Shown here: piece after piece, positions 6,948 through 64,000 of the stretch
Layout of the letters: every line of letters begins with the position of its first letter
Position numbering within the stretch: position 1 is the stretch's first letter
Assembly: GCA_004431415.1 (NCBI GenBank)
Contig: QPMI01000036.1
Coordinates: 519,163-583,162, forward strand
Direction of reading: 5' to 3'
Length of the DNA: 64,000 bases
Origin: Cyanophora paradoxa CCMP329
Lineage: Eukaryota > Plantae > Glaucophyta
Position numbers and translations under genes: made by a program
The notes under the pieces: model-generated
What the model was told of the DNA's origin: nothing
What the model saw: only the letters and a program-made list of their open reading frames with translations
Database searches by the model: none

Positions 6948-7079
6948 CGCCAGAGGCCCAGGGGCCAGAGCGCTTGCTGGGGTACAGTGAGAACCTCGCG
7001 CTTAGTCCGTCGCTCGAGCTCGTCTTCGCCGCCGAGCCCTGCGGGCCCCGAGATCGCTCCGATCATTCGATATCGCAAA

Positions 7080-30880: not shown

Positions 30881-31387
30881 GTGTGCACAGAATGCATTAG
30901 CTTATGCTTATGCGCCCCGCAAGGCGACGGCGGCGGACTTGCCCTTGCTCCTGCGCTGACAAAGTTGAACCGGGCTCCAATGCCGGCGCCTGGATCATTT
31001 CATCGCGCAGCTGGTTCCAGAATGCGATGACAGGTGCGCCTGCACGCGCAGACATGCTGCCGCAGTGCAGCTGGCTGCCAGAGTGCTCCTCCGATCCGCA
31101 CCCAAACCAACCCCCCCCTCCCCCCCCCCCCCCCCCCCCCCCCCCCGCCCGCCCACCTAGGCCTCAGGGTCCCGACTCCCCGCGGCCGAGTCCGCGCGTG
31201 ACACGTAAAATCCGTAAAGCGCCGGCGGTAAATCGTCCGGCTTTGAAGCCGCACACGCTCGAGCTCAGCCCTGTTTCGAGCCGTCGGAAGAGCGCCGCTG
31301 GAATCGGTCTAGACAAGGCTGCGAGTTCCCCGCAGCGCCTGGCTCGGGATCAGGCAGCCCAGGGAACTTGCCTTCCACGTTCCAAAC

Positions 31388-33521
31388 ATGGCGTTCACGG
31401 GGGACATGCAAGGCGGCCTCGAGAAGCAGCTCGTCGAAGCGCTCGCCCGCGCCGAGTCCGCGAACCCGGCCTCGCTGGTGCGAGTCCGTGCGACGTCCAC
31501 AGGCGAACGCGCACCCTGCGCGGCCGGATCGCGCGTGCGTCTAATCGGTCGCGGTTGCGCTACGCTCGCGCAGGTGGATGCTTCGGGGAGCCGCCTGTCG
31601 CCGGCGGCGCTGGCTCGCGCGCTGAAGATCCCCGCCCTCGTGGAGCTCGCGGTCTTCGTTGCGGACGGGCGGGTGCGTGCTTTGGCCGCGCGAGCTAATG
31701 CAGGTCCCGCCGCTGACGTCGACCGCGCGTCCTGGGCCCAGGTGTGGGATGTGGCCGAGCCTTTCGAGCCGGTGTGGTACATGAGGAAGAGCCCGCACGA
31801 CGCGGCGTACGCGATGGAATACGAGGACGACGAGGAGATGCAGTCGGACGCTTTCTTCCGCGAAGTGAACGCGCTGCTAAACGGAGGTGCGCCCCGGCCG
31901 CGGCGGGCCCCGGAATTCGAATTCGTGCGCGGCGCCCGCCGACCGCCCACGGCCGCAGGCGCCCTCGGGGCCGTGGCGGACGTGGTGGAGAAGGAGGAGG
32001 CGCCGGAGGAGGTCCGGAGCACGGCGGGGGCGTGCCTCGCCCGCATCGCGGCCTCGCGCGCGCCCGGACTGCTCTCCCGCCTCCTCGCCGGCCGCCAGCT
32101 CTTCGCGCCCCTGCTCCGCCTGCTGGACCACCTCTTCCGCGACCGGCCGGGGCGGCCCGCCGGCGCCGGCAAGATGGGGGTACGCCGCGCCGCCCTCCTG
32201 GTCGCGCCGCGCGCTCGAGCCTCGGGCTTCGTGCGCAGCGGCACCTCGCTGAGCTCATGGAGGCCGTGGTGCTCTACGGGGAGGACGGGCAGGCGCTTTC
32301 CGATCCAATTCGATCAATTTGCAATTCGATCTGATTGTGACGGCCGCCCGCCGCCGCATGCAGGCCGAGCGAGCGACCGCCGAGCCCGCAGCGCTGGCCC
32401 CCTTCGTCTCCGCCCTCCGCTGCTTCTGCACGGACCCAGTGTGAGCGCGTAACTTTATGTACCCGTGCGTTGGTTGACGCTGACCCGCCGGCCCCAGCGC
32501 CGACGTCGTGTACCCCGGCCCCTTCCCTCCCGAACACGAGCGGCGTGCGCGCGTCGCGAATCCTGTAACCCCCTCCTTTTCCGATGCCTGTACCCCAGTG
32601 CGGTTGGCGGCGAGCCTGGCGAAGCTCTCGGAGCTCTTCCTGTGGGGCGACTCCAACCGGGTGGGGGGTACGCGCCCTCCCGCCCCGTACCCCTGACGGG
32701 AACCGACCCCGTACCCCCAGGGGAGCTGCCGACCGAGGAAGGCGTAGCCAGGCAGGCGAGGGCCCTCGAGGCGTCCGGCGCCCTGCAGGCCATGGGCGGT
32801 GCGCGTGCCCCTCTCCGACGGCTTTGTACCCCCTGAAGCGAAGCTGTACCCCCAGAGGTCGTGGTGGAGATTGCCAAATCGATCCCACGTATCGCGGAGC
32901 GCGTGAGCTACTCCCCGCCCTGCCCTTCTCCGCCCCGCTCCGCCCCCCTCCCTCCGCTCACCCGAGGGGGTACAGGACATTCACTACGCTTCTCGGGCCC
33001 TCTTCGACCTGCTGAAGACCCTGGAGAAGGCTCTCGTCCGCTGCGGGAGCCCCGCCGCCGTGCGCGCGCGCTGCTGAAACTAGCGAAGACCCTTTCGTCC
33101 ATTCTCTGAACATGAGCGGTCGCTCGCGTGCAGGCGCGGCGCGCCGCGGACCACTGCGCAGCGGCCCTCGCCGCCGCCCAGCGGCACGACCGGCACAACG
33201 CGCGCCGCGCCCTCTCAAACCTCCGCCGCTCGCGATCGCTCGCGCCGCCCTCTGACTCGGGCCGGGCCCACGCAGGCCTTCGGCGGGCTGCGCAACTACA
33301 AGATGACGTTCGACGGCATGGTCGCGGAGCTCCGGCCCCGGCCCGCGGCCCCCGCCGCCGCTCCGTCCCAGCCGCCCGCAGCGAACGGCCCGGCAAGGCC
33401 CAGGCCTCCGCCGGCGGAGGGGCAGGCTCCGGCGCCGGTGCCGGCGCCGAGGGCCCCCATGGCCGCCCAGGGCGCCGGCGGCCGCGGCTCCGGCCTCGTC
33501 CGCGGCTTCTTCAACAGGTAG
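31388..33521 (+). CDS. Hypothetical helical/TPR-like protein (multi-exon), the more intact copy of a local duplication
   Basis: MAFTGDMQGGLEKQLVEALARAES.. with TPR-like C-terminal exons (LAKTLSSILN..ADHCAAALAAAQRHD) and a GGRGSGLVRGFFNR* tail. Confidence 0.55.
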
Positions 33522-44704: not shown

Positions 44705-46297
44705 TCAGTGGGAGGCCAGGGCACGCCCCTCGTCTTCCCTCTCGTACTCGATCTCGACGGACCCGCCCCGCCGCTTCTTCTGCGGCCGGCCCTTCGCCGG
44801 CGGCGGCTGCTTCGCGGCCGCCTTCCCCTTCGCCGGAGCCGCCGCCGGGGCCTTGCCCTTGCCCTTCGCCGCCGCTCTCCGCTTCCCCGGCCGCTCGCCC
44901 TCCTCCTCCTCCTCCTCGTCTTCCTCGTCCTCGTCGTCCTCGTCCGGCTTCCTCCGCTTCCCAGAGGTCGAGCTGCCCGCCCTGCTGCTGCTCCCTTCGT
45001 CTTCGCTCCAGCCGGCGCCTGCCGATCCGAGGAGAGCGGTCGGGCGCGCCCCAAGTTTAAGCGCCCCCGGTCCCCAGTCCCAGGAAAGCGTACCCCCAAA
45101 GTCCTCCATGTCCTCCAGGTCCTCGTCCTCGTCCTCCCCCACCTCGAAATCCTCGACGAACTCGCGCTCCATCTCGCCCTCCTCCTCTGCGCCCCGCGTG
45201 GGCGCCGGAAAAGGAAGCAAAAGGAGCGGCGGCGCGCACCCTCCTCGTCCTCCTCCTCCTCCTCCTCCTCCTCCGCCTCCGCGCCGCCCTGCTCCTCCGC
45301 TTCGGCCTCTGCCTCGTCGAGTGCTGCGCAGGCGACTCCGTCGGCGACGCGAAGGCGAGAGCGGGCCCGCGGCCCGGCGCGGCGGCCGTCCCAGGCGGCG
45401 CACCCTTCTCGTACGCCTGCATCGGGAAGTTGTAGATGTCTCCGTACGTTCCCGCCTGCGAGCGACGCTCAGCGAGTGCGCCTCGGCGAGGAACGAAACA
45501 GCGGAAGCGGAGGGCGAGCCTTGAGGCGCTCCAGGAGCTCCTTCTCGATCGACTTCTCCAGGTTCGCGGCGACCTCCGCCTTGCGCTCGCGGTTCGCCTC
45601 GCGCTGCTCCACCTTCTTGTGGATGCCCACGAGCTTCTTCTTCTGCTCGGCGCGCACGCGGCCGCGTTACGCGCGGATCCGGGCGGAAGGCACGTCGCAC
45701 GGGAGCTAGCGCTCGCGCACCGGCTTGAGCATTAGCTTGCGCATGCGGATAAGCATCTGGGTCATCTTCGTGAGCCGTTGCTTCGCCTTGTGCACGAGGT
45801 ACTTTGGCCAGTACTGCAGGTTCGCGTCGATCTGCTCCAGCGCCTTGGCATAGTTCTTCGAGAGCTTCACGCGCTCCCAGAGCTTCGCGGGCATATGCGC
45901 GCGCTCGATGGTCTTCATGTACAGGTACAGCACGCCCTCCTGCGGCGTGGCGCCCTTGATCAGCGGCGATCGCGATCCGGGAGCGCGGGGCGCGGCCGGA
46001 GGGCGCCCGGCAGCAGGTTTTGAGCCCTCTAGCGCTGGCGCCCGTCATTCCGCGCCCCTGCGGCTGCGGCGCCTCCAAGCCGACCGCGCGGCGCCCTACG
46101 AGGGCGGGGCGGCGAAAGAGGGGGCGCACCTGCTCCCGAATGGTCGCGTATCGCGAGTTGGCGAGCGGGCACGACTGCCGGTTGCACAGGCCGGTGATGT
46201 TGTACTCATTGCGGCAGAAGGTCTGCGTCAGAGTCTTCGCCTTGAAGCTGCAGTGGCCTCGATTAACCAGCTGCCAGATTACTTCGTCAGTCTGCAT
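44705..46297 (-). CDS. MAK16: MAK16 ribosome biogenesis protein (multi-exon)
   Basis: [68 protein letters not shown], an acidic tail and VEIEYE. Confidence 0.96.
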
Positions 46298-47823: not shown

Positions 47824-48292
47824 ATGGAGGGCGCGGAGCCTCCAGGGCTGCCGCTTGCCCTCGAACAGATCGGCGCCGACGCCACACGGCTCGCGCATTC
47901 CGTCGAGTCGACCATGGCGTCCCTGCGCGGCGCCCTCGCGCAGGTGGGCGGCACCGGTCCGCTCGTGCTCTAGAGCCCAGCGTGATCCGGCCCGCAGATG
48001 ACGAGCGCGACGGGGCAACACATCGTTGTGCACGCGGAGAGCGTCGACGAACTTGCTGCGGTGGTCGACGAAGCTGCAGCGAAGCAGGAGGCGTTCGCGC
48101 ACAGGGTGAAGGAGCTGGAGAACACGTTCGCGGACGTCGAGCGCATGGGCCTTCAGGTCTGTGCGGCGTCGCTCGCCGGGCTGCGGGCGGCCTCCTATCT
48201 CTCCTGAGCGCGTGAACCTGCAGGTCAAACAGATCCGGCGGGAAGTGGACCTTTTCGAGGAGCTGCTCCAGCGGCCCCGCATCCCCCGCTGA
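47824..48292 (+). CDS. BORCS6-like (BLOC-1-related complex) coiled-coil protein, 3 exons
   Basis: Spliced product ..LAHSVESTMASLRGALAQMTSATGQHIVVHAESVDELAAVVD..KELENTFADVERMGLQVKQIRREVDLFE matches the BORCS6 C-terminal helix pattern as I recall it. Confidence 0.6.
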
Positions 48293-49326
48293 CCGGAGAC
48301 GGCGGGCGCTGCAGCTCTCAGCTCGCGTACTGCAGTTTTCGTAGGACCCCTCGCACCCGTCGCCATCGGCGCATGTCCGCACCAGCGCGCCCGCCGTGCA
48401 GGCCCATGCCAACCCACGGAGCCGGCGGGCGATAGCTCAGCGGCTGCAGCTGCAATGCAGCTTGCCCGGCGCCGACCGACGCGGGCCGCGACGGCGGCAG
48501 CTTTTCGGCTCTATGTTGTCTCTTGAGCGGACAGACCGGCGCACCACGTTCCCTGCTCCCTGCATGCGATCCCCCCTTCGAATTTGAATGGACAGTCGCT
48601 GGCCATGGCCGCCCCGCCGGCCGGGAGCTCCACCGCGGGCGGGCGACGCGGACGGCGCTCCGGATCGGAGGCGCTGGCGCCGGTCCGACGGTCGCCGACG
48701 GCACGCGCGCGCGCGGGATCCCGGAGGGCGCTGGTGCCCCGGCCCCGGGAGCCCTCGAGCCTCAGATATCAATCTGCGTTTGGATTCCCCCGCGGTCGCG
48801 GCCGATCGTCCTTGGCCGCCGGCCCGGCGGGCCTCCCGCGCCTCTCATGATCATGATCAGTGCGGTACGACGTATACGGTAGACACCGAAAGGATGTATA
48901 TATATATCAATACGATACTATGATAGAAATAATAAGACTAGTTATACTATGATAGCTGGTTTCGTAGTACAAGCACTACTAGGCTAGCTAGCTCTATATA
49001 GGTGGGCTCTTGCCAAGGGTCGAGCTCTCGAGCTTGCCCCTTCGCTGTCAATGCATTGTTAACCCTCGGAGGTTGATGAGTCACGCGTTGCGGAGGTTGC
49101 ATTGTTATATTGCATTCGGGGAGGCAGGGGGACTAACACGTCCAATGTACCCCCCGGGGGCCTCCCGGCCTCTAACTAGGCTCGGACTCTAACTGAATGC
49201 TGTACCCCCTGCGGTTACTGCCCGAGCCTAGCGAACTTGCGTAACTCGGCCTCGCCCTGTACCCAGTGACTGGTGTCGTCCATCCATTCGCGTACCTCCC
49301 TCTGACGCTTGAGTGACTCACGCTGC

Positions 49327-50705
49327 TCAGGTGAGGGGAGGGGGGCCGTAGAGGAGGGGCCGCGGCGGGGGTACCATGCCAAAGTTTGCCCACTCGGGGG
49401 GTATACCGAATTCACCGTGATCGATTCTCTGAGGCGTGAAGTACTGGCCGTCGCTCAGCGCCAGGTGGTAGAAGGCGTTTCGCAGTCGTCTGAGGAAGCG
49501 GGGCTGCACAGTCTGCGGGTCAAGGCTCTCGAAGCGCCACGGTGCCACAAAGTCAATGATACGCTCCTGCACCCGCGCGGGCAGAGCGAGGATCTGGCTC
49601 TTGCGGTTCGCAAAGGCCATCCACAGTGCTTGTAGGTCCGCCCAATCGCCGTTCAGATCCCTGCGTTCTCGCCTGCCATGATTGCGTGGATTGATCGTCA
49701 TACCCATGAAACGTGCTGCGCCGATGGTGTTTTGATCTGGAAACTCTTGATCGTCGTTAAACTTATCTCGTATCCAGCGCACGAGGTACAGCACGCGTTC
49801 CATAAAGTTCTCCCCGGGCGATCCGCTCCCCGAATCGGGGCCCATCGCCCATCGCCGCCGGTGCAGATCGGATTGTGCGTCGTCCAAGTCCACGGTCCGC
49901 TGTAGGATCTCACCGATGATGGGGCCGTTGTTGTACAGCACGTCGGACTCGCGTGTCCGCGCCATGCTCGCGGCTCGCTGAGAATATCTACCCGTACCCC
50001 CTATCACGTCCACCTCCACGTCAGGCGATTGTTCTCGAAAACGGGGTACGCCTCCTCCTCTGGGGTATAGTGCCGACCTTTGCCTCACCCGGCAGACGGT
50101 TTCGATCGTCCTGCAGCCAGTCGCGCAGTCGCTTGCGCTCGTTGATGGGGGGCCTCGAGTCAAAGGGGGATACGTAGGCGGGGGGCGGGGGTGGGGCGGG
50201 CGGAAGCTCTTGCCAGCTCCGGGGTACGAGCTCGCGTGGAATCTCGAGCTCTGTGTACCGTGAGCCGTCGTACTGTCGGACACCGCCTTCGCCTGTACGC
50301 ATGTACCACTGTATCTCATTTCGAAGCCCATTGATCACATCGCCTTCGCGCCCGTCTCTACCTGCGAGTAAGAAGTTCATGATCTTCAATCTGGCCTCGT
50401 TCGGCAGACGGGCCACGCGGCTTCTAGGCGACATCAGCGCCACGTACAGGGACGTAAGCACACTGCTGAAGTCCCAGTTCCGATCATAGGATGGGGGGCG
50501 AGCCTCACGGTATCCCGCAGCCCCTGGGCTGCAACAGGGCTAGCCCCTCAGCGGAAAGGACGACGTTCCTATCCGATTTCGCATCCCCTCCTTGAACTTA
50601 TCTCGTATCCAATGGGCCAGGCCCCTAACGCGAGTCAGGAACTCTTCGGGGCTCGAATCTTCGTCCATCTGCGGGACCGGGCTCGAATCTTCGTCATCCG
50701 ACATT
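49327..50705 (-). CDS. Orphan protein with two copies of an unknown domain (frameshifted into three ORFs)
   Basis: EEFLTRVRGLAHWIRDKF..IGTSSF..LYVALMSPRSRVARLPNEARLKIMNF parallels ENFMERVLYLVRWIRDKF..IGAARF..LWMAFANRKSQILALPARVQERIIDF. Confidence 0.6.
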
Positions 50706-50756
50706 TGCAATTGCACACAACGAGAAATTCTAAACGCTACTGCGAGGCTACGAGCT

Positions 50757-51392
50757 ATGGACCTACAACAGGGGAGCGCGGCGTGGCACGCTGCGCGCCG
50801 CGAAAAGCTAACCGCCTCGAACTTTGCCGCCGCGTGCGGCATCAACCCGTGGAAATCCAGGGCCCGCCTCTGGGCGGAGCTGAGCGGGATCGCGGAGGAA
50901 AACAACTTTGACAACCCTGCCCTAACCTACGGGCACGACTACGAGCCCCTCGCGGTCTCTATCTACAAGGCACTGAACGATAACGTGGACATTCAACACA
51001 CTGGACTGCACGAACACAAAGAAATGCCGTTCCTCGCCGGGAGCCCCGACGGACTGATAGGAAATGATAGGATTTTAGAGGTGAAATGCCCTTACAAGGG
51101 CGAACTTTACGATAGCGTTCCTACCTATTACATGACTCAACTTCAGGGCCTGCTGGACATAACGGGCCGCGACTGGGCCGAACTTTTCTGTTTCACGCCT
51201 CTGCGCGTGCAAACGTGGTACGTCAGACGGGACGAGAGGTACATCGAGCTCATGCGGCGGTGCTTACATCTATTTTGGATGCACGTGAAGGCTGGAACTC
51301 CGCCCGAGCCCTACAGCGATCGAATGAAGTCAGAGAACCTCAGCGAGGAGCAGGCGGCGCTGCGCGAGTTTAAGTCGTACGCCCTCCTCTAG
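50757..51392 (+). CDS. YqaJ-like viral recombinase / lambda-type 5'-3' exonuclease
   Basis: Intact and intronless: QGSAAWHAARREKLTASNF, YGHDYEP, LAGSPDGL, LEVKCP (PD-(D/E)xK) and YYMTQLQG. Confidence 0.93.
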   Translation: MDLQQGSAAWHAARREKLTASNFAAACGINPWKSRARLWAELSGIAEENNFDNPALTYGHDYEPLAVSIYKALNDNVDIQHTGLHEHKEMPFLAGSPDGLIGNDRILEVKCPYKGELYDSVPTYYMTQLQGLLDITGRDWAELFCFTPLRVQTWYVRRDERYIELMRRCLHLFWMHVKAGTPPEPYSDRMKSENLSEEQAALREFKSYALL

Positions 51393-51730
51393 TGTCCCGA
51401 CCCTCTCAGATATTAATTTAAAGATCTGGAGGGTCGGGACACGTCTCTTGGTCAGACTACTTATGTACGCCCTCCTCTAGTGTCTCGACCCTCTCAGATA
51501 TTAATTTAAAGATCTGGGAGGGTCGGGACACGTCTCTTGGTCAGACTACTTATGTACGCCCTCCTCTAGTGTCTCGACCCTCTCAGATATTAATTTAAAG
51601 ATCTGGGAGGGTCGGGACACGTCTCTTGGTCAGACTACTTATGTACGCCCTCCCTCCTCTAGTGTCCGGACCTTTCCAATAATCTATAAAGAAAGTAGGG
51701 AGGGTCCGGACACGTCTCTTGGTCGGACTC
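51377..51730. repeat. Four tandem 88-89-bp units, each containing a ~50-bp palindrome with an AT-rich centre
   Basis: Units start at 51377, 51465, 51554 and 51643. Core tgtc(c/t)cgaccctc-tcagatattaatttaaagatctg-gagggtcgggaca; unit 4 is diverged. Confidence 0.93.
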
Positions 51731-52008
51731 ACCGTAGCTTGGTGTAGCTCAGGCCCAGGCGGGGAAGGCGAGTCTGCAATGAATCAGACCCCACAGGATT
51801 TGGTTGAGCTGCTCTTTGCAGGGGGGCAGGAAGGCGGCCGCAGAGGGCTAGGGAGACTAGATCTAATTAGTAATCCCACACCGCGCATGTGCAAGCGACA
51901 GAGAACGAAGTGAGTAAATGCAGATCGATGATACGGCAATCATGAGTTGTTCAGAAAAGGTCGGGACACATAGAGAGTGCATGCCCTCACTCTCGTCCGC
52001 CCTCGCAA

Positions 52009-52058
52009 TGTCCCGACCCTCCCAGATCTTTAAATTAATATCTCAAAAGGTCGAGACA
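52009..52058 (-). promoter_or_regulatory. Palindromic origin-like element (inverted copy) downstream of the helicase
   Basis: tgtcccgaccctcccagatctttaaattaatatctcaaaaggtcgagaca is the reverse complement of 55368-55417 with one mismatch. Confidence 0.75.
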
Positions 52059-52159
52059 TTCATTGATCATATGCATGACGTCACTTGAATTCGCACGTTC
52101 GTATTTACACACTGGCACGCGCATCCCGTTCGCGAAGTCCACACTGTGACATCCGACAA

Positions 52160-55100
52160 TCACACGCGCCTGTGAATGAGAGCATAGCAGTCGGAGAAAA
52201 CGTTGTAAACCTCTGGGAAGCTTGGCGCCATGCCTGCCCTTGCCTGCTTAGCCTGGCGCTCTACTGCGTCGTCGAGCATGTCTTCCTCCCACGTGATGTA
52301 GCGTCGCTTTCGGCTGCCCATTTGCCCTCCGTCCGCGTCGGAGAAAGCGCGTCTCACTCCGAGGTACTTCTCCAGCAGGTACTTGATGACTTGCCAAGAC
52401 TGCTGCGAGAGCCGCTTCTTCTCACCGTCCGCTGCATCGAAGCGGGGCGCGCGCTCGTCCAGACTCTGCAGAGCCGCGTACGCCTCCCGACCCTCCGGCG
52501 ACGCCAGGGCCGCGTAGGCTTCGTCCGACCACAGAGCACGCCCCGCGAGCTTTCCATACCCCCGCCAGCCGAAGAGTTTCTTGAACAGCGCGACGACCTT
52601 CGATACCTTGAGGCGCTCAGCAGTAGGCACGATCTCGGCAACGTCCGCGCCATGCTTCAGCACCAGCGTGACCACGGCAGTGAGCGGGATGGAGTAGAAC
52701 GAATCCCACATCCAGGCGACGTCTCCTTCGGTCAGCTCGCTCGGATCCTTGGCCAGGAACGCGGCGATCGACGTGCGAGCAAGCGAAGCAACCTTCTCGA
52801 TGTCCAGCTTAGCGAGAGACTCGCGGGACTGCCTCCAGGCCAGCACCGTGCTCCACAGATCGACGGGCTCCAGCGCGCCCGCCTCCAGCACGCTCCTGAT
52901 CTCGCGCAGCCGCTGCTCCTTCTCCTGCTTCGGTCCGCTCGGGTTTTGATCCTCCGTGACTTGCACGTTCATCAGCGCGCAGGTCGACATCAGCCGCAGG
53001 CGCGCTGCCACTGCGAGGCGCCGAGTGGGCATGCCGGCGCGGCGGCTCCCGCGGTGGCTAGCCTTCAGGTCCAGGTAGCGCTGCATGTCGTCCGAGCTCT
53101 CGTCGTCGTCGCTCTCACGCCAGTGCGCAGCCGCCGCGCCGACCGCAACCGAGGGCGTCCGGTTCTTGCGCACGGCGACGAGCAGGTGCTCTCCGTCGGG
53201 CGTGCTGCGTTTGCGCAGCCTTCTGACTCGAAACAGCAGCTGCACGATGTCGTCCGCCTCCAGCTGCGCGGGCTCTGCCTGGAACACGCCGTAGACCTTG
53301 TCAAAGTGCGCGTCCGAAAAGTCCACGCCTGCCCCGAGCGCGGAAGTTGCGATGAGCACGTCGCAGGCCTTGTACGCGCCCTCCTCAGACACATCGATCG
53401 ACACGATGCGCACTGGGCCGTCGTTCGTGAAGCGCACGCTCTTCTCCTTGGCCTGCCCAACGATGAGCCCGATCGTGAACGGTGCGCCGCTGCCGTCCTC
53501 GGGCCCTGCCTCGAGCTGAGTCACGTACTGAGCGCCGCCCAGGCTGAGCTGCTCCAGCGCCTGCTTCGCAATCTTCTCCTGCATCTCGATCGCCTTGGCC
53601 GGCGTCTCTGCAATGATCATCGCCCGGCAGCGCCCCGGTCTGCACAGCGCCATGATGTCCGCCTCGACGTGCGCCGGGCTGTCTGACACGCGCATCTTCC
53701 AGTCGCAGGTGCGATGCGAGTTGTACAGGAGCCCCAGGCGCGCCCCGACCTCCTGCGCCGACTCTGCCAGGTACGCGAGATCGACCGACCGAACGAAGCC
53801 GTCCATCGCCACGATGCGCGATGCCTTCATCACGCCGCGCCATAGGCCCACGCAGCGCGCGTTTCGAGGCACTGACCGCATACCTAGGTGCAGGCCGGTG
53901 GGCTCGAGGGTGCCGCTCGAGGTGAGGTGCTTCGTGAGGGAGGAGAGCTCGTCCAGCACGACCAGTAGCGGCGCCGTCGACCAGCCCTCCCAGTCCTCGA
54001 GCACCTTGTGCAGCGAGTCCCATGTGATGACGACGCACCTGCACTCCTCATGGCGGAAGCCCCACTTGCCATGCGATCCCTTTGAGCTCTCCGGTGGCTT
54101 CTTGATGTCCATGTAAAGCACGGCGTCCTTTGACAACTCCGCAGCATCAATGCGACGCTTGAGGTCGCGGGAGAAGGCCCGGCGGCAAGTCACGAGGATC
54201 ACTCGCCAGCCGCCTGCAAGGGCCGGGTCCAGGTACGCATCGATCAGCGCCTGCGTCTTCCCCGTGTTGAGTCCCGAGCAGATGACGTCGACCTGCGGCT
54301 GAGCGGATCTCGGGTTCTGCTCCAGCGCCCCGAATGCGGAGGTAAGGATCTTGCACGAGAGGTGGCGTTCATCCACTGCATTGACGCAAGCCTCCAGGCC
54401 CGTCGACTCGAGCGCGATCAGGAGGGAGGGAGGGCAATGTCGAAGGCGACAGGCTGCGAGGGATCGGTCACATAGCGGGTCTGTGCCACGCTGCCCGACT
54501 CCCCTCCGGTCCCCTCCCCCTCGAGCTCGACTTCAATACCGTGCGCCTGGATGGAGATTCGAGCCGCCGGCGCCCCCGGCTGACTCCCGCCCAGGACGAG
54601 GGTGATGGACCCGTCGGGCTCGACTCCAAGGTGCTGAACGCGGCGGGCGTCGTGCAGGCCAAGGTCCGCGCGCAGCTCTGCCCCGCCTTCCAGATCTCGT
54701 CCCTCACCGCCTTGTTCTTGCGCAGGCGGTCCAGGAGCCGCTCCAAGGCCGGCAGGCTTGGGCTCGAATCCAGGAGAGCGCCCGGCTCCGGGATGGGCTT
54801 AGCGCGGGGCGCCGAGCTTCTGGATGGAGTGGGAGGAGCTCCGCTCGCGGCCCGGGCGCCGGCCCCCGCAGAACGTAGCCCCCGTGCCATCCACACCGAG
54901 CTCCAGGCCGCTCGAGCTCCCAAAGAACCATGCCATGAGATCGCAAGCCTCCGGGCTCTGTAGGACGTAGGCAGCCTTGAATCCATTATCCAAGGGGCGA
55001 GAGAAAGTGAAGCCTCCGAACTTGGTTGCAAAGGCGCAGGCTGCCGCGGTGCTCGTCTCATCCTCGGCACCCGAGAAGTGGCTGGGGTGATGCAGGGCGG

Positions 55101-55277
55101 GTGGAAGACGCAGAAAGCCGTCCCCAGGGTCGGGCTGCAGGCCTTCTGGACTTCGACGAGAGGGAATCGAACGAAAAAGCTGCACTCCTGCTCGCTCAGA
55201 TCTATCTGCTGTACCCCGGGCCCGGGCATACGGGCCAGGAAGGCGTCGACGTCGAGAGACACGCGTCCGGTTGCCAT
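52160..55277 (-). CDS. Origin-binding-protein (herpes UL9-like) SF2 helicase with a frameshifted N-terminal extension
   Basis: Open 52160-54376: SGLNTGKT (motif I), VTCRRAFS (Ia), ITWDSLHKV, VVLDELSS (II), VAMDG (III), TSALGAGVDF..HFD (V), QLLFRVRRL (VI). Upstream frames from ATG 55277 appear to continue the same gene through indels. Confidence 0.85.
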
Positions 55278-55367
55278 GGTCGTCTCTCTATAGCTAGGCT
55301 TGGAAAATTCTAGATCTACTAGGCTAGTCAACGTCTGTTGGCTAGCTATAGTCGACGTCTGGACTGC

Positions 55368-55417
55368 TGTCTCGACCTTCTGAGATATTAATTTAAAGAT
55401 CTGGGAGGGTCGGGACA
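55368..55417 (+). promoter_or_regulatory. Palindromic origin-like element upstream of the helicase start
   Basis: tgtctcgaccttctgagatattaatttaaagatctgggagggtcgggaca, ~90 bp before ATG 55277. Confidence 0.75.
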
Positions 55418-56560
55418 GGCTTTGGTCCGACCTTAAGCGCTCAACTAGACCCGGTTGACACCGTCTTGATCTCTCCTTCTTGGCGCAGCGGACGATGTGA
55501 CGCGCAGACCGTCGGCCCGGCGGACGGGGAGGCGCGCGCGTAGAACTTCGGAAGCGCTAGCCCCTTGCTTGACCGAAGCTTAGAAAGTTTTGAGCGCACG
55601 TGAATGCGACACGTGTAGAGAGAAGGCAGAGCGCGCCGGAGCTAGCTTGCGCGGCCGAGCGCTCGACCGCCTTTGCTCCTAAGCTCAGAAAGTTTTGGGC
55701 TCACGCGGTTGCTCCACGTGTTTCGACTCAAAACACAGTACCCCAACCCGAAAAAAAGCGCCCGGGCAGCGCATCTCGCAGCGCCCGGGCCCAGCGCTCC
55801 TTGCAGCACTTGCCAGAGGCACTAGCTTGCATTCCGCTCAGCCCGGAGAGCCGCCGCCTCGCTCCTTTCGATTCGGAGGTGCGCCTCACTTCGCAACCTC
55901 TTTCTCCGCACCACGGCTAGCTCCGGACCTCAGATTTTGGGCGCTGGAAAGCTCTCTCGACGCCGCACTCACGCCGCCACGCGCAGGGTCGCTCGCGCCG
56001 GCCGCGGACCTTCGAAAGCTCGATGGCGCCCGAGCCGGAGCACTCCGCCGCATCCCGCAGGTGCCAGCTCGCTCTCTTGCCGCTCTATCCCTTGCATTTA
56101 GCACCTAGAACATGCCCGCAACCTCGCGCTCGATTCGCCCGCGTCCGCTGACATTTGGTCTCTGAGCAGGTGCCGAGATTGGCCGCCGCGCCTTCCGCAA
56201 CTCGAGCCGACGTTCGCGGCGACTTGCGCACGCTTCTAGATCTCGTTCTCAAGCCCGCGCATCGATTCGGCGGCTCCGGCTCGCCTCCCCGCGCCTCCAG
56301 CCCCGCGCCCCACACCCGTTCTTGTCCTAGCTAAGCCCTCCCTTGTCCGCGGCCAGTCGCGGGCTACGCGCATCGCGGATAGCATCAGTGGAGCTACGTT
56401 TCAGCGCTGGACGCAGGCCCGCCCGCCCAATCCCTCCCACCTCCCGCTCGCAGCACGCTCACTGGGCCGCAGGCAGCTTCGCGGGGAGCCGCTGGATTCG
56501 AAGCCGCGCACCTTCCCCGCCCGTCCCGACGTCGTACGCGCTAACGTCGCCCGCGCCGCA

Positions 56561-57716
56561 GGTGGCCGCCAGGCCTCCTGCATCCAGCCTTCGAGCCGGT
56601 GTGGCTGCGGGAGAAGCGCCTCGCCTTCTGGCAGGAGACGGCCTCCTGCCCCCTCACCCGCTTCATCATCACCCACTGCGTCGTCGACCCCACCACCTTC
56701 CTCGTCGGCTCGGAGACGGAGGGCTGGATGACGAGCGTCGCGGGCATCGTCGAGTACATCGCGCGCACGGAGGGCCCGGACACCTCCGCCGCCGTCGCCG
56801 CCGACGTCGAGAACGGCGAGCTGGACGAGACCATCGCCGCCTTCGGCCCCAGGTGCCGCCTCTTCTCCTACAGGGCCGGCGGCATCTGGCAGACCTACAT
56901 CCGCGGCATCGTCCCCAAGGCCCCCCTCTCCCTCGGCGAGAGCCAGCCGGCGCTGGAGGCGATCGCGATCCCCGTCGCCCAGTTCAAGGACCCGGCGCCC
57001 GACGTCGGGCCCTTCCTCGTCAAGCCCCACACCAAGGGCAAGGGCAAGCGCACCCGCAACTCGGCGCCGGCCTTCCTCCCGCCCCAGCCCCCCGCCACGG
57101 CCCCCCAGCAGCGCCCCGGCCAGCAGCGCATCGACGAGATGCTGCCGCGCCAGGTCCGGCCCCGCGTACCCCCCGCCTTCCCTCCCGTACCCCCCCTCCC
57201 CCGCCCCCTCCTGATCCAAGGGCAGGGTACCCCGACGAACGGCGGCGCGGGCCCGAGCGGCTACGGGAGCTCGGCCTCCTCCGCGAGCGCCGACGGCCCA
57301 GCCCCCTCCCCGGCCCCGGCGCCGTCCTCACCGCGATCCAGGGCTTCGGGGCCCAGCAGGAGGCCGAGCGGCGGGCGCTGGCGGCGCGCCAGGCGCGCGA
57401 GGCGGAGGAGCGGCGCCAGGCCCTCTGGGCCCAGCGCCTGCAGGCCACCATCGCCTTCCGCGCCGAGCTGGACTCCGGCTTCCGCGCCGGCCAGATCGCC
57501 GGGGCGGAGGCCTCGGAGCGCTGGCGGGCGTTCGAGGCGGAGTCGGCGGGGCTGGCGAAGGGCCTCGGCTACAGCTACCGGCGCGTGCCCGTGCTCAAGG
57601 ACTACGCGTCGGCCGCGGCGCGGGAGGCCTCGCGGGCGGAGATCGACGCGGCGGAGGAGCAGGCGGCGCGCGAGGAGGCCGAGGACAACGCGCGCTTCCG
57701 GCACCTGCACCACTGA
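56561..57716 (+). CDS. Orphan protein (frameshifted); start resembles a D5/P4-primase C-terminal region
   Basis: Strong coding bias. EPVWLREKRLAFWQETASCPLTRFIITHCVVDP.., then a Pro-rich linker and a helical tail. Preceded by ctaac..cag, a branch point/acceptor-like signal. Confidence 0.45.
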
Positions 57717-57765
57717 GGCCCCGAGGCGGTATTTTTTCTCAACCCTCCCTCAATTCGGTCCCGCG

Positions 57766-57954
57766 ATGGCCTTCGAAGCTTATCCTGCCCACTACTCGCT
57801 AGGAGCGCTGGCCGCGACCCTCACCTGGCTCCTCGGCGGCACCCCCACGGCCTCGGCGGTCATAGGCGTGGGCTTCGGCTACGCCGCCAAGTCCCTCTAC
57901 GCCCCCGGCGGCGCCTCGCAGGCGGCGGCCGGCATGCGCCCCGCCGGGCGCTAA
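57766..57954 (+). CDS. Small hydrophobic orphan protein
   Basis: MAFEAYPAHYSLGALAATLTWLLGG..AVIGVGFGYAAK has two short hydrophobic segments and T-rich flanks. Confidence 0.55.
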   Translation: MAFEAYPAHYSLGALAATLTWLLGGTPTASAVIGVGFGYAAKSLYAPGGASQAAAGMRPAGR

Positions 57955-58049
57955 CTTTTCAAAGTTCATTCTCCCCTCCCCCTTTTCCGAGTTCCGAGTC
58001 CGTTGGCGTTCCCTTTTAAATTTTCTTCATTCTCGTTACACGTTCGAAG

Positions 58050-58529
58050 ATGTCGAGCGCGGTAGAGAAGCTGCTGTGCACCGTGTTCAAATCGGATTCG
58101 CGATGCAGCAAGATCGGCGAGGCGGCGAGGGCTAAGGGCGGGGCGGCGGCGGAGGGGCCCAGGGTGAAGGCGGCGGATCCCGCGCCGCCGTCGCTGAAAA
58201 CGATCAAGGGGGCGGGCAAGGGCAGGAGCGTGGGGGCGCTGCCCCTCGTGGCGATCGCGCCGGGGCAGAGGGAGGCGGCGCACGCGGCGACGGCGGCGCT
58301 GGCCGCGCGGCGGCAGGCGGAGGCCTACCCGTGCCTGGGCCGGGGGCTGCACCCGCCGGCCGGCCGCCCCTACGCCGTGAGCGCCTACTTCGACGAGGCC
58401 AACCGGCTGAGCTGCCAGGAGCTGTGCGACAACCGCATGCGGCGCGCCGTGGACGGGCACCTGCCGCTGCTGGTGGCGCTGGGCGGCTCGCTCCTGATGG
58501 TCTGGTACCTGCGCGGCCTGGTCATTTAG
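58050..58529 (+). CDS. Orphan protein with Cys residues and a C-terminal transmembrane anchor
   Basis: Intronless 159-aa ORF ending LPLLVALGGSLLMVWYLRGLVI. Confidence 0.6.
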   Translation: MSSAVEKLLCTVFKSDSRCSKIGEAARAKGGAAAEGPRVKAADPAPPSLKTIKGAGKGRSVGALPLVAIAPGQREAAHAATAALAARRQAEAYPCLGRGLHPPAGRPYAVSAYFDEANRLSCQELCDNRMRRAVDGHLPLLVALGGSLLMVWYLRGLVI

Positions 58530-58555
58530 ATAGTTTTTCGAAGTCTAGGTCAAAG

Positions 58556-58957
58556 ATGGGCTGGGTGGACGCCGTGCTGACCAAGGTCTTCGGACCGAAG
58601 AGCGCGCAGCCGCCGCCGAGCTTCAACCTGGCCGCGGCGATCAGCACGACGATCGAGCGCAAGAACAACGAGCTCATCCTAAAGAACGACGGCAAGCTTC
58701 CCTGGGCCGACGTGGCCGCGGGCGCACTCGGCAGCACGCTGACGGGAATCGATCGGACGGGCGCCGCGGGCGTGAAGGTCGGGCAGGCGGTTGCGGCCGT
58801 GCCGGAGCTTGCGATGAAGGGCTGGCACTACGCCAAGATCGCCGCCGGCGTCGCCGCGGTGCTCCTTGCGATCTGGCTCGCGTGGCAGCTGCGCGGCGCC
58901 TACCAGGGCGCGCGCCTGCAGAGCGCCCAGCTCGACTATTTTCTAAAGGCTAGGTAA
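58556..58957 (+). CDS. Orphan membrane protein
   Basis: MGWVDAVLTKVFG..IAAGVAAVLLAIWLAWQLR, starting 27 bp after the previous stop. Confidence 0.6.
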   Translation: MGWVDAVLTKVFGPKSAQPPPSFNLAAAISTTIERKNNELILKNDGKLPWADVAAGALGSTLTGIDRTGAAGVKVGQAVAAVPELAMKGWHYAKIAAGVAAVLLAIWLAWQLRGAYQGARLQSAQLDYFLKAR

Positions 58958-58969
58958 AGCGAGCGAACC

Positions 58970-59341
58970 ATGCGCGGCGGCTCTTCCCCCGTGTTTCCTT
59001 CGCTGAGAACCCGGTGGCGAACGCAGTCGCCCCTACCCCCTGGAGCCCGGAGTGAAGCTGGAGCGTGCGAACGCAGTCTCCGTCAAGAAGGCCAAGCGCA
59101 CGCTGGCGCTGGAGTCCCGGTCGCGGAGGATACGGAGAAGGTTGCATTCAACAAGCGCAAGACGTACAAGGCGATACGCGAGGGACAGCTGCTGCCACCG
59201 GACTCGGTTCCCGGGCTGCCGGGCACCACGGCCGGCGAGCTCCTAGTGCGCAACCTGCGCCTGCAGTACGTCTCCCGCCTCCGCCGCTCCAAGGCCAAGA
59301 AGGCGCGCCTGGACTCGGGCGATAGCAGCTCTAGCTCGTAG
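58970..59341 (+). CDS. Basic orphan protein (probably frameshifted)
   Basis: K/R-rich (NKRKTYKAIR; RLRRSKAKKARL); tightly packed after the previous ORF. Confidence 0.5.
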   Translation: MRGGSSPVFPSLRTRWRTQSPLPPGARSEAGACERSLRQEGQAHAGAGVPVAEDTEKVAFNKRKTYKAIREGQLLPPDSVPGLPGTTAGELLVRNLRLQYVSRLRRSKAKKARLDSGDSSSSS

Positions 59342-59368
59342 GGCTCTGTACTGTTGTATTCAATGCCT

Positions 59369-59653
59369 TTACCAGTTCCTGTTCCTATCCCAGAGCACGA
59401 CTCGGGTGAAGGGCACGGTCATAGCGAACATGAACTCGGCGAACTTTGCAAAGTTCATCAGGGTTCCCAGGCGGGGATCCTCCCAGTAGATCGCCTCGCG
59501 CAGCGCCTCGTAGACGCGCATGAGGGAGCGCTCGTTCTCCGTCGCGAAGGCGTCGCCGGGCTCGTCGGGGTCGGGATCCGTGAGCTCGGAGTACTCGTCC
59601 GAGCTGCCCGCGCTCTCGGCACCTGCGGCGGGGTCGGGCGAGGGGTCGGGCAT
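59369..59653 (-). CDS. Small orphan protein with an acidic N-terminus
   Basis: MPDPS..DAFATENERSLMRVYEALREAIYWEDPRLGTLMNFAKFAEFMF, an intact 94-aa ORF. Confidence 0.6.
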   Translation of the reverse strand: MPDPSPDPAAGAESAGSSDEYSELTDPDPDEPGDAFATENERSLMRVYEALREAIYWEDPRLGTLMNFAKFAEFMFAMTVPFTRVVLWDRNRNW

Positions 59654-59689
59654 TCTCTACTAGTAGAAGGGCTAGAAAATCACTAGCAA

Positions 59690-60027
59690 TCACGGGCGCC
59701 GGAACTCCATCGAGTCGCCGCGCCAGTACTTGTTGCCGGAGGCGAGCAGCTTCATCGGCTCGCCCGTCGAATCGTGCTTCCAGGCCTCGCCGTCCCAGAG
59801 GGCCGTGCCGCCGTCCTCTAGCTTGAGGCGGTGGCCCGGCTCGAGCCGGTTGCCGTCGAGCATGCGGCCGGCCATGAGCGCCAGGTCCACTCGGTGAGGT
59901 TGCGCTGCTCTGCGGGGTGAGGCCGCGCTCGACGCGCTCGGGCTGGCGCGCCTCGCGCTCCATGCGGCTGAGGCCACCAGGAAGAAGATGGGCACGCAAA
60001 GGCCATGAGATCTAGCAGGGCCTCCAT
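59690..60027 (-). CDS. Small orphan protein (frameshifted 5' part)
   Basis: Hydrophobic start (MEALLDLMAF / PIFFLVAS) and C-terminal LKLEDGGTALWDGEAWKHDSTGEP. Confidence 0.45.
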
Positions 60028-60391
60028 TGGGAGGACTTAGAAAAGGTTCCGGACCAGGCCCGAGAGCTGCGGGCCCAGGCGCCGGGCGGCGTAGTAGAGC
60101 GCGGCCGCCGCCGCCGCAAGGATCAGAAGGCGCGGCGGGCCGCGCGCCGGCTCCTCCAGGGTCAGGTCCACGGTCTCCGGCCCGCGCGCCGGAGCCGCCA
60201 GGATCTCGGGCTCGGAGCAGAGGGACTTGGGCCGCGGCGGCGGCGCTGCTTGGGCGCCGAGGCGGCGGCGGTGAGAAGGTCCTCAGGCTCCTGCTTGATA
60301 CCTGCGCAATCGGTGAAGTCCATGCTTGCTGGGTACCTTGGAAAATTGTGGGAGGCGTCCGGAGTGTGCGAACGTAGCTCCAATGGGATTT

Positions 60392-61052
60392 GCGTCATTT
60401 ACGTCCGCGTCATTTACGTCACGGAGTTTGCCGGCGACTCGGGACTCGGGCCCAACTTCTCCGGTAAGTTCGAGACTTGAACTCGGCGGGGGTACCCCCG
60501 GTGTCCTAGTGTCCTAGTGTCCTAGTGCTACTAGCTAGGTGGTATCGATATCTAGCTAGCTAGCGCTAGCGCTTGCTTAATTAATTAACCTGAAGGGTCG
60601 CGTCATTTACGTCAGCGTCATTTACGTCACGGAGTTTGCCGGCGACTCGGGACTCGGGCCAACTTCTCCCGGTAAGTTCGTCACGACCAGTAGCTACTAG
60701 TACCGCTAGTACTACGTAGTACTACTTAGTACTACTTGGTACTACTTAGTACTACTAGCTTAGTACTAGTAGCCACCGATACTGGTACAGCTTTTATAGA
60801 TTTAAGCATTCATTCAATGTGAATAACGATAATAGTAATAATAATAACGATAAGTAATAGGGATACCTATTTTTCCAAGTCTCGAACTTACCGGGAGAAG
60901 TTGGGCCCGAGTCCCGAGTCGCCGGCAAACTCCGTGACGTAAATGACGCTGACGTAAATGACGCGACCCTTCGGTAACCTCCGCAACCCTTCAGGTAAAT
61001 GTCAGGTAACTTCAGTTGAGTTAATTAAGCAAGCGCTAGCTAGCTAGATATC
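60392..61052. repeat. Iteron-containing direct and inverted repeat complex
   Basis: An ~85-bp unit (gcgtcatttacgtc)x2-acggagtttgccggcgactcgggactcgggcc..ggtaagttcg lies at 60392 (+), 60600 (+) and 60876-60965 (-). Arms 60547-60680 and 60883-61052 are inverted around an AT-rich spacer. Confidence 0.92.
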
Positions 61053-61082
61053 ACAGCTCTACCTTGCCCAAGTTGATGGTAT

Positions 61083-61469
61083 CTAGCAGGCCTGCTCCTC
61101 CAAGTCTGCACCGCCGCCGCCGCCAGCGCTAGCGCTAGCTCGATACCGCCTCCGGACTTGATCTCCCTTGGCTCCAGCCACCTGAGGGCTCAGGCCACTC
61201 CTCCTGGTGAAGCCGGTATCGTTGCTCTTGTCCAGCTTGAGGTAGCGGTAGGGCGCCGGCGCCGGCCAGTCCGGCCTGTGGCCGCTTGCCTCCTTGGCTA
61301 TGTCCTTGGGCCTACGCGGTCGCAGGTCCGCCTTGGCCTTCGCCCTCTGCAAGGGGCCCAGCGCCTTGAACTTCGGTGCCTTGGTCGCCGCAGGGCCTTC
61401 GGCTGGGGCTTCACCGCCTTCGGCTGCTGAGGCCTTAGCTGCTTCGATTTCGGCATACTTCTTGCTCAT
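61083..61469 (-). CDS. Basic Lys/Ala-rich orphan protein
   Basis: MSKKYAEIEAAKAS.., an intronless 128-aa ORF. Confidence 0.5.
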   Translation of the reverse strand: MSKKYAEIEAAKASAAEGGEAPAEGPAATKAPKFKALGPLQRAKAKADLRPRRPKDIAKEASGHRPDWPAPAPYRYLKLDKSNDTGFTRRSGLSPQVAGAKGDQVRRRYRASASAGGGGGADLEEQAC

Positions 61470-61944
61470 AAATGAGAAAGCGCCTCGAAGTCGGCCTTTA
61501 TCTCCTCCTTGGTCCAGGATGTCACCTGATCCGGGTCACCTGAGAACGCGCATCGAACGCCACGTGGAGCGATTTGCAGCCTGAGCTATCATTGGCTCGG
61601 CCAGGCCAGCTCGATCAGCTGAAGGTAGATGTTCAGGCCTTGTCGAGCTTGGCGCCCTGAGAGACTAGCTGGGAGATAGCGGGCTCCATGGTACAGCAGA
61701 GCTTTAGAAAATGGCGCCAAGTCCAAGTCCTTTTTTACGGGCGAGGCCTGGGCCGGGGCCAGGGCCGAGTCCAACTCCGTGACGTAAATGACGCTGACGT
61801 AAATGACGCGGACGTAAATGACGCCGAATTTTCAAGTTGCCTCACCTGAAACTCAGCTGAGCGCTCACCTGACCCTCACCTGAACGCCTCAAAACGCAGC
61901 CCGCCGCGCCTCTCCTCACACTTCAAAGCCAAGAGAAATCAAGA

Positions 61945-62168
61945 ATGTGCATCCCACGTACTTCACCTGCTGTCTCACCTTCGGCATCTTCGCATACGTC
62001 ATATACGACGATGAGTTCGACCGAAACACGTTCTACTTCTGCAAGCTCCTTCGCGACATTTCGTCGGAGCACCGCAAGGGCGATGAGTATGATTGGATTC
62101 AACTGCTCCCCTCAAGAACGAGATCGTACTGTGAGAGAGAAGTGCATTGTAGGCAGGTTCAAGATTAG
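61945..62168 (+). CDS. Small Cys/aromatic-rich orphan ORF (frameshift near start)
   Basis: HPTYFTCCLTFGIFAYVIYDDEFDRNTFYFCK.. downstream of repeated tcacctga motifs. Confidence 0.4.
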
Positions 62169-62324
62169 CTCGATTCGTGTAGCCGTCGTAGAGGATCTGA
62201 TGGTGAATTGAACACGTGTTTTACCTGAATCACCTGAGCGCTCACCCGAGGTCAGCTGAAGTCGGTGGGGCGCCTTAAATATTTTCTAGCGCTAGGCTGA
62301 AGCACACTCTAAGCTAACGCAAAC

Positions 62325-63044
62325 ATGGCCACCGTCCGCAACGCCAACGAGATCGACCCCGCCAAGCTCGCCTTCGAGATCGACGCCACGGCCGCATCAA
62401 GGCCAAGTACGACGGCCTGCAGGGCCTCATGATGTACGCGCCGCCATGGTCACGATCAACCCGTGCATCAACACAGAGCAAGGCAGGCGTGGAGCGACGA
62501 GAGAAGCCTTCGTCATGGAAGAAAACGGCGGATTTACACGCTGGACCTCACCGATCTCAGCGCGTCGACGGCCAGACGAACCCAGCCGCGGACGAGTTCC
62601 TCAACTGCTGGAGCCTGACGCGAAATTCTGCGAGTTCGTGCAGCAGAACCAGGCCAAGCTCAAGGTCTCGCCCGGCCGCTCCCTCTCCAAGATCAGATCT
62701 CGGTGCTGCAGACGCCCAGCGTGCGCATCAAGTCGACAAGGAGTCGGGCCAGGCTTCTACAAGTACCTCACATGCGCATCCGCACCCAGACGATGGCGGC
62801 AAGCGCAGACCGTGCCCGTCGTCGACATGTCCAACTACCTCATCACCGAGCGCGCCACATCGCACCGGAACCTGGTGGGGCGCTCATTAAAATCGACACC
62901 GCTACGCCATCCCGAGGGCAAGTTCGGCCTCAAGTGGTCCTTCTCGCCGTGCAGCAGTGCAAGGTCGGCGCCTTCGCTTCGCCGGCGCGCCCCGAGCTGG
63001 CCTTCAAGCCCTACGACAACGAGGCGATTTCGAGCCCTACCTAA
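62325..63044 (+). pseudogene. Probable viral OB-fold ssDNA-binding protein, multiply frameshifted
   Basis: Reconstructed MATVRNANEIDPAKLAFE..DAKFCEFVQQNQAKL..TPSVRIK..VPVVDM..LVGALIKID..GKFGLKWSF. The layout and terminal GKFGxxW strand resemble SSBs of large eukaryotic DNA viruses. Confidence 0.55.
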
Positions 63045-63116
63045 ACCCCGAGTCTATGTACGCAGCCCCCATGCAGTAGCTCGGACGAATAAATTGTGAA
63101 TTTTTGGTGCAATTGA

Positions 63117-63892
63117 TTACACGCGTTTACACTCAAGGCCGTTGAACTTGCGCCCACCGCCTGGGCTCCGCCGCCGTCGAGGCCGCCGCCTCCGTACCTC
63201 CTTCATTACCTCCGGGTTCGCGTTCGCCGCGTGCACCGCCAGCACCGTCTGCACCAGGCCATCCCCAGCGCGCCTCGGGCCCAGGGTCACGTAGCGCGAG
63301 TACTTGATCACCAGCTCCTCTAAGATCGCTGCACTGGTCCATCGAAGAGAGCGTCGCTGCCCGAGCCGTCGAGCTTCAGGCCGATCGGATCGTACGCCTT
63401 GTTCAGGTGCTCAGCGAGTGCATGCCGCATCAGAAGAGGCGCGCCGCCTCAGCGAACCCGCGTGCTCAGCTCGCGCTGAATCTCCTCTACTCTTCCTTCA
63501 GCTCGTCCAGCGGCGTGGCCGCTCAGCTTCTTCGTGGACGTAGCTCGCCCCGAACGAGCGCGGTACTGCGCGATCTGTCGCAGGACCTGCTTCTTCTGTC
63601 CACGTCCACCTGCGCCTCGTCCCGCGGCCGCTCCTGCAGGTCGATTCCAGCGCCTTTTCACGCTCTGCTCCTTCTTCTTCGTCATTTCGATGTGCTTGCA
63701 CGCTGAAGCCGCGCCCTTGCTCGGCGCCGTCGGCGGCACCGCGGGCCGTCGCCCAGCGCCATCTTCGCCTTCGGCGCCTTCTCCCCCTTTTCCTTGCCCT
63801 CCTTCGCGGGCGGCCTTCTTCCGGGCTGCGGATCCCACGGGTTCGGCCGTCCACGGCCAGCGCCTCGAAGCCAAGCATCGCGAGGGGTCCAT
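63117..63892 (-). pseudogene. Frameshifted orphan ORF
   Basis: Coding-like fragments in alternating frames (KHIEMTKKKEQSVKR; LVIKYSRYVTLGP..GLVQTVLAVHAANANPEVMKE). Confidence 0.35.
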
Positions 63893-64000
63893 CCTTTACG
63901 CCTGCCCCTTAGAAATATTTTTCACTCCGAGGTCAGCTCGACGAGAGCTCGATGTAAAGCCAGAGCTTCTCGCGCAGCTCGGGCCCGCTGCCGTAGAAGA

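Follow-up and report, generated by a model that had tools for sequence, protein, structure and literature searches.

The window analysed here, a stretch of 64,000 nucleotides from contig QPMI01000036.1 of the glaucophyte Cyanophora paradoxa CCMP329, ends in the visible part of an endogenous virus, and a large inverted repeat lies among the genes of this element (Table 1). Five of seven window ORFs that were compared with protein clusters are exact entries there, and every named member of those clusters is a C. paradoxa gene model, in keeping with this alga as the host. The left boundary of the element was placed near 48994 on the strength of a jump in depth and of the contig of the single-copy flank, which ends at 49023. 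Across this boundary, the depth of contigs, taken in bins, climbs from 22 to values of mostly 500–2000 in run X1 and from 91 to mostly 2000–8000 in run X2. At the helicase gene, contig depth divided by flank depth gives an estimate of ~45 copies (X1) or ~33 copies (X2), depth not being an exact copy number; the ratios are similar in the two runs, which resembles stable integrated copies. The boundary lies ~330 bp beyond the last ORF, directly after CTAG-rich host DNA, with no coding break there, and many copies lack 49076–49155 and 49675–49923. The stretch 48994–49330 may be a fixed attachment end.

The host DNA to the left has features of its own. Just left of the virus is a gene (44705–46297) with a Ribosomal_L28e-family domain, which we take to be Mak16-like. 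Direct repeats of 2.2 kb (25109–27351 and 31246–33516) are 95% identical and have an LTR-like layout around an AT-rich stretch at 28–31 kb; no Pfam match was found for the ORFs tested in this repeat region. Tandem arrays of 177 bp (three units) and 106 bp (4.6 units) occupy 22235–23348.

Table 1. Features of the endogenous virus and of its repeat region, with positions counted from the first letter of the window
Feature	Position	Strand	Remarks
Visible part of the multi-copy endogenous virus	48994–64000	.	Right end beyond the window
YqaJ-like viral nuclease/recombinase gene	50757–51392	+	Pfam PF09588, E 2.7e-28
50-bp palindromes	51393–51712, 52009–52058, 55368–55417		Copies in inverted orientation on either side of the helicase gene
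UL9-like (origin-binding-protein-like) SF2 helicase gene	52160–55277	−	Frameshifted near its start in the assembly
Copy A	60392–60479	+	~85-bp module: two 15-mers and a GC-rich tail
Linker	60480–60546	.	14-bp GC palindrome (60487–60500) and GTGTCCTA ×3.4
Left arm, copy B	60547–60680	+	Low-complexity CTAG/TTAA outer part (60547–60591), core (60592–60680)
Spacer, left half	60681–60785	.	10-bp TAGTACTACT array ×5, 18-bp perfect palindrome (60707–60724), predicted ~100-nt hairpin
Spacer, right half	60786–60875	.	20–24% GC, candidate unwinding element
Right arm, copy C	60876–61052	−	~36-bp insertion relative to B
Copy D	61773–61824	−	Three 15-mers; divergent promoter between genes starting near 61689 (−) and 61945 (+)
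Nucleocytovirus-type single-stranded-DNA-binding-like (SSB-like) gene	62326–63044	+	Frameshifted in the assembly

Genes and repeats of the carrier element

A preliminary description of this DNA, made from its letters alone, had set the repeat in the middle of viral ORFs, and the nuclease, helicase and SSB-like genes of the element fit such a setting. The helicase ORF of the window itself has no Pfam hit and reaches only E 0.16 against solved origin-binding proteins; its paralog P0007 passes the cut-off of PF02399 (Herpes_ori_bp) with E 6.3e-5. The SSB-like paralog P0064 falls nearest to the Nucleocytoviricota clusters DUF5871/DUF2738 (score 0.92–0.97), families that we take to be single-stranded-DNA-binding proteins, and the clusters nearest to the SSB-like protein are 89–100% viral, mostly Nucleocytoviricota. 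Two relatives of this protein are 88% and 69% identical to it, indicating that related viruses exist elsewhere. Searches of IMG/VR by motif, helicase or SSB-like protein returned no related virus DNA, nor did JGI metagenomes by SSB alignment or tandem 15-mer. In the visible 15 kb, Pfam and PHROGs identified no capsid, packaging ATPase, VLTF, HUH, integrase or protelomerase gene and left most ORFs of the element without a name. Matches to conotoxin, spanin and GRP on frameshifted ORFs were sub-threshold and were dismissed as noise, and no Rfam family was found in 48000–64000. Within the element, the window shows many one-base deletions relative to the short-read contigs, and these deletions in the assembly account for several broken reading frames.

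Some yaraviruses (Yaraviridae, Mriyaviricetes) carry an SF2 helicase related to UL9 (PMC11253617). The element resembles Mriyaviricetes in its UL9-like helicase, its PD-(D/E)XK-type nuclease and its SSB-like gene, a gene set that is not exclusive to this class. The hallmarks of Mriyaviricetes are HUH, capsid, packaging ATPase and VLTF3 genes in a genome of 35–45 kb, and none of those genes is seen in the visible 15 kb. Giant-virus inserts (giant endogenous viral elements) are reported in C. paradoxa (PMC12344493), and a Cyanophora PLV is mentioned in PMC12220804. In the papers searched on Cyanophora viruses, supplements aside, the present element appears to be undescribed.

A second repeat family lies beside the helicase gene, at 51377–51729, 52009–52058 and 55368–55431. 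Within its 89-bp unit, repeated 3.9 times, lies an imperfect palindrome of 50 bp whose arms are GC-rich and whose centre is AT-rich. A tandem joint from 55429 to 55366 is present in three of three DNA runs, so other copies of the element hold arrays there too. These palindromes are a strong candidate for an origin or a recombination site, and arguably a better candidate origin than the B–spacer–C region considered below.

Run X15, whose RNA type is only a guess and whose low depth over the inverted repeat was left out of the evidence, contains contigs of depth ~1200–2600 over the helicase (window 52009–55757). Eleven GT..AG skips listed on the plus strand correspond to an RNA that is spliced and runs antisense to the helicase ORF. 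An X15 contig with its end at 55757, beside a TTTTC motif at 55755 (−), links 52009 (−) to 55418 (+). This contig fits a helicase cassette that is inverted between the 50-bp inverted repeats and read antisense from the upstream promoter; alternatively, the assembler may have merged two RNAs through the repeat. In contigs tig00000140 and tig00021332, two helicase gene models occur, or a helicase is fused to a left-end-type gene, which suggests tandem duplications inside some proviruses.

The inverted repeat, its spacer and the neighbouring promoters

In the alignment, the 134-bp left arm (60547–60680) and the 170-bp right arm (60883–61052) pair end to end, with ~36 extra bases in the right arm (copy C) and 6 in the left arm (copy B). 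The 81-bp cores of B and C differ solely by a single inserted base; in those of A and C, the differences are a mismatch and one base. Exact inverted matching extends over up to 69 bp, compared with at most 24 bp in 100 shuffles of 58000–64000, and the inverted-repeat fold has a z of −31. The 69-bp exact match and the near-identical 81-bp cores bear out both the inverted arms and the additional direct copy at 60392 that had been reported before. Copy A pairs with C further inward (60461–60479 with 60876–60894) than B does, so that A and C also form an inverted pair. Between the flanking genes lie 759 bp of non-coding DNA, as had been stated earlier for the repeat, and no ATG ORF longer than 52 aa lies wholly within 60380–61080.

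Each module carries the 15-mer TGACGTAAATGACGC, which occurs nine times at up to two mismatches, against 0.05 expected: two are found in each of copies A, B and C, and the other three in a further, partial copy (D) that the preliminary description did not contain. All nine 15-mers are confined to two intergenic regions. The core unit of the repeat is not itself a palindrome, and its four copies occupy two loci within the visible 15 kb. Duplication within one virus subfamily is the probable source of the three near-identical copies, which recombination may keep alike.

Arms B and C are separated by a spacer of 195–202 bp. The AT-richness previously ascribed to the whole spacer holds for its AAT-rich part (24% GC); the other half is an array of TAGTACTAC at 43% GC. 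The AT-richest 60-bp and 90-bp windows of 48994–64000 fall in the spacer, whose right half ends in a TTTTC motif like that at gene starts (60870, +), with no ORF behind it. The predicted hairpin of the left half has a z of −4.6, which is partly owed to the self-complementary unit of the array. At the B–C centre (60781/60782) there is no palindrome of at least 8 bp, nor is any visible in the centre sequence; 31 of 101 positions pair across the centre, as well as is achieved by 38 of 300 shuffles. The spacer is nearly invariant, with two substitutions and one one-base insertion as the minor variants of 60681–60875 in short-read contigs.

The TTTTC motif stands 15–50 nt upstream of 8 of 14 chosen gene starts and of 6 of 280 other ATGs, and the first figure is inflated because we picked the starts ourselves, not blind and in some cases after the motif had been seen. 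Array A lies ~45 nt upstream of the TTTTC of the gene starting at 60323 (−), and array D ends 3 nt upstream of the TTTTC at 61828; in both, TGACG is on the sense strand. Array B is 208 bp further upstream of the leftward genes than A, and copy C faces no gene start. Clusters of CACCTG/CAGCTG, presumably E-box-like, occur at 61520–61545, 61841–61887 and 62225–62260, upstream of genes to the right of the repeat; CACCTG has a density of 1.5 per kb in the element and 0.65 per kb in host DNA.

TGA-type bZIP factors bind the motif TGACG (PMC3645718). The sense orientation of arrays A and D before TTTTC, together with their TGACG content, indicates that the 15-mer is likely to be an upstream activating element and not an iteron. 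The earlier term 'iterons' is unsupported, since the 15-mer has more resemblance to an array of host bZIP sites and also stands in an ordinary promoter (copy D). In the plant as-1/ocs elements, two TGACGTCA-like 8-bp palindromes are placed 4 nt apart (PMC3645718). The Cyanophora repeat is like these elements in having tandem TGACG upstream of a transcription start region, but its TGACG starts are spaced 9 and 6 nt apart, and bZIP binding in a glaucophyte is putative.

Position of the repeat among the copies of the element

To compare gene order among copies, consecutive accession numbers of C. paradoxa gene models were used as a proxy. Accessions near tig00000194 and tig00020851 were assigned by contig name, and two SSB models on the same contig were counted as one. 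In 19 of the 25 loci with an accession-numbered SSB-like gene, a gene from the left of the repeat lies at most 21 accessions away, on one side and in the order of the window; one of the counted loci may be the window's own. The remaining six could not be placed, and none of the placed loci is permuted or out of order. In nine of the 19, the series extends to the leftmost gene of the element, 10–20 accessions from the SSB-like gene, and two further contigs (tig00020938 and tig00000443) concur by gene name. The circular permutation that had been proposed as a sign of joined ends is thus absent from the 19 placeable loci. There is also no copy of the repeat at the visible left end near 48994. A 12-bp match between the right-arm insertion (60976) and the left end (49087–49098) and a 13-bp match between 60484 and 49363 were considered and not accepted as terminal homology. 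Because the flanking genes are adjacent and colinear in 19 of 25 loci and the left end lacks the repeat, the integrated copies do not end in these arms.

In all four DNA runs, the DNA on both sides of A, the spacer and the DNA adjoining C are represented by short-read contigs at multi-copy depth, and in run X6 a single contig crosses the whole spacer (60659–60905). No joint at the repeat region is listed in any of the four DNA runs, a type of data in which contigs cannot reveal molecule ends. Contig depth over the spacer is ~20–26 times that of single-copy DNA in X1 and X2, and the spacer is therefore shared viral sequence and not host DNA caught at one locus. The depth of the arm core relative to the spacer is 2.6–3.3 in X1 and 3.1 in X6, close to the threefold excess that three copies per element predict.

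Loose contig ends point to variation at this site. Of 56 loose ends, 24 were viewed; 17 match by eye copy D, the arms or nearby window sequence, and 7 match nothing found in the window. These seven lie after 60377 (four runs), after 60920 (two) and before 60976 (one). Over 60976–61039, a variant contig has depths of 296, 1208, 105 and 2379 in the four DNA runs, and bin depth at 60357–60383 far exceeds the depth of the window-type contig. The departures after 60377 and the variant over 60976–61039 suggest that a large minority of copies carry another version of the region, in which case the exact spacer of the window is not universal.

Proposed roles: enhancer, origin or virion ends

The combination of factor sites, AT-rich DNA and a promoter, as in the oriLyt of KSHV, and the double role of baculovirus hrs lead us to favour, tentatively and as the foremost of several readings, an internal enhancer that is bound by host bZIP-type factors and is probably also a replication origin. 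A replication or packaging signal was one of the proposals of the preliminary description, and a role in replication or regulation fits the evidence. The KSHV oriLyt is made up of factor sites, an AT-rich region and a promoter (PMC4306831). The likeness is one of anatomy only: a non-coding region of a latent DNA virus with a cluster of factor sites, an AT-rich region and an adjacent promoter. The virus and the sequence are unrelated, the Cyanophora sites form inverted-repeat arms, and no viral activator was identified. Baculovirus hrs act as both origin and enhancer (PMC4535591). By analogy, the Cyanophora repeat is a module repeated at more than one intergenic site with a proposed double role as enhancer and origin; hr units carry an imperfect palindrome and occur at many loci, while the core here is non-palindromic and, in the 15 kb that are visible, present at two loci. 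Of the repeats of the element, the 50-bp palindromes next to the helicase gene are the more hr-like.

The favoured reading can be put as a sequence of steps. On motif content, we infer that bZIP proteins may bind the TGACG arrays. Arrays A and B would then activate the leftward gene block, and array D the divergent gene pair that adjoins the SSB-like gene. Once the provirus is activated, the outward-facing arrays B and C would help to open the AT-rich DNA between them, and the opened spacer could serve the helicase and SSB of the virus. Against this reading stand the TGACG spacing unlike that of as-1, the separate palindromic origin candidate and the second version of the region.

Some of the same observations would suit a simpler account, in which the region is promoter and enhancer DNA only: in one subfamily of the virus, duplication would have yielded tandem and inverted copies of a TGACG promoter module, and neither spacer nor inversion would have a replication role. 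The array of copy D stands in an ordinary divergent promoter without arms or spacer, the variant contigs after 60377 and over 60976–61039, present in all four runs, speak for another version of the region, and a different candidate origin lies next to the helicase gene. This account leaves unexplained why copy C faces no gene start and why the spacer is both the AT extreme of the element and nearly invariant; we regard it as possible, if somewhat unlikely.

The preliminary description had raised the alternative that the repeat represents joined terminal inverted repeats. In hairpin-end concatemer junctions of the poxvirus type, the DNA is near-palindromic about the centre of the repeat; in joined terminal inverted repeats of the Polinton/adenovirus type, the repeats abut or nearly so, and they are terminal in integrated copies. 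The spacer of the Cyanophora repeat is not self-complementary, so hairpin-end, telRL and abutting terminal-repeat junctions fail as models, and, in contrast to a Polinton/adenovirus circle junction, its arms are 195–202 bp apart and internal. The internal position in 19 of 25 loci, the left end without a repeat and the lack of central symmetry in the spacer thus weaken the original proposal. It survives in one form, because a circularising virus with one fixed integration site elsewhere would keep its joined ends internal.

In this form, linear virion DNA would circularise and integrate through a fixed attachment site elsewhere, the repeat being the joined or linearisable ends. Gene order does not vary among the 19 loci that could be placed, which suits a single integration site, and the two halves of the spacer are unlike, a hairpin being predicted in one of them, which might be expected of two different ends. 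A precedent is found in Ectocarpus, where phaeovirus proviruses use attP for integration and are linearised within themselves at an inverted repeat, a telRL-like site with a 6-bp palindrome centred in it, and where a telomere resolvase is encoded (PMC13236599). The Cyanophora element is like these phaeovirus EVEs in that an inverted repeat is internal to an integrated algal nucleocytovirus and the proviruses are colinear; it differs from the telRL of phaeovirus and N15 in its asymmetric centre, in arms ~200 bp apart and in the absence of a visible resolvase gene in 15 kb. The B–C centre has no palindrome and pairs no better than many shuffles, and the arms do not abut. Contigs, which cannot reveal molecule ends, show no joint in four of four runs. 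The visible 15 kb yielded no protelomerase, integrase or capsid gene, and the depth ratios, similar in X1 and X2, resemble stable integrated copies. We therefore consider virion ends unlikely.

A more elaborate combination of these elements seems less likely again. The ~33–45 colinear copies would represent a latent, small and so far undescribed nucleocytovirus of a glaucophyte that integrates through one fixed site; its repeat would open or join virion DNA under host bZIP control by a mechanism of neither the telRL, the hairpin nor the abutting terminal-repeat type, and a spliced antisense helicase RNA from the inverted cassette would aid latency.

It is highly improbable that the repeat is an invertible switch, in which arms B and C (or A and C) would recombine and the spacer, with its TTTTC at 60870, would come to face toward or away from the leftward block. 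The arms are near identical, and the RNA-type contig in which the helicase cassette is turned round between its own inverted repeats hints at inversions. However, the motif would sit ~500 bp from the next start codon, compared with 15–50 nt elsewhere, and no site-specific recombinase was seen; no isomer was seen either, but contigs cannot span 80-bp identical arms.

A host-wide MITE, which had been named at the outset as the competing origin of the repeat, or a captured host target site is largely refuted. At their outer ends the arms are rich in CTAG, as host intergenic DNA is, and CTAGCTAG occurs at six host positions; against this, the 15-mer is absent from 49 kb of host DNA, no target-site duplication was seen, the flanks of 60547 and 61052 differing by eye, and the roughly threefold depth of the arm core over a spacer that is itself multi-copy leaves no room for copies throughout the host. 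Finally, a fold-back chimera of the long-read assembly, for which the many one-base deletions might speak, is refuted for the junctions by the multi-copy short-read coverage in all four runs.

The reading of the repeat as an enhancer and candidate origin, if correct, concerns a group of viruses in which little of this kind is charted. The architecture of the repeat is itself well known from other DNA viruses, and the origins and promoters of nucleus-replicating relatives of giant viruses are barely mapped. A defined enhancer/origin candidate, present in dozens of colinear copies in a cultured alga, would make reactivation, host-factor dependence and genome-end structure testable.
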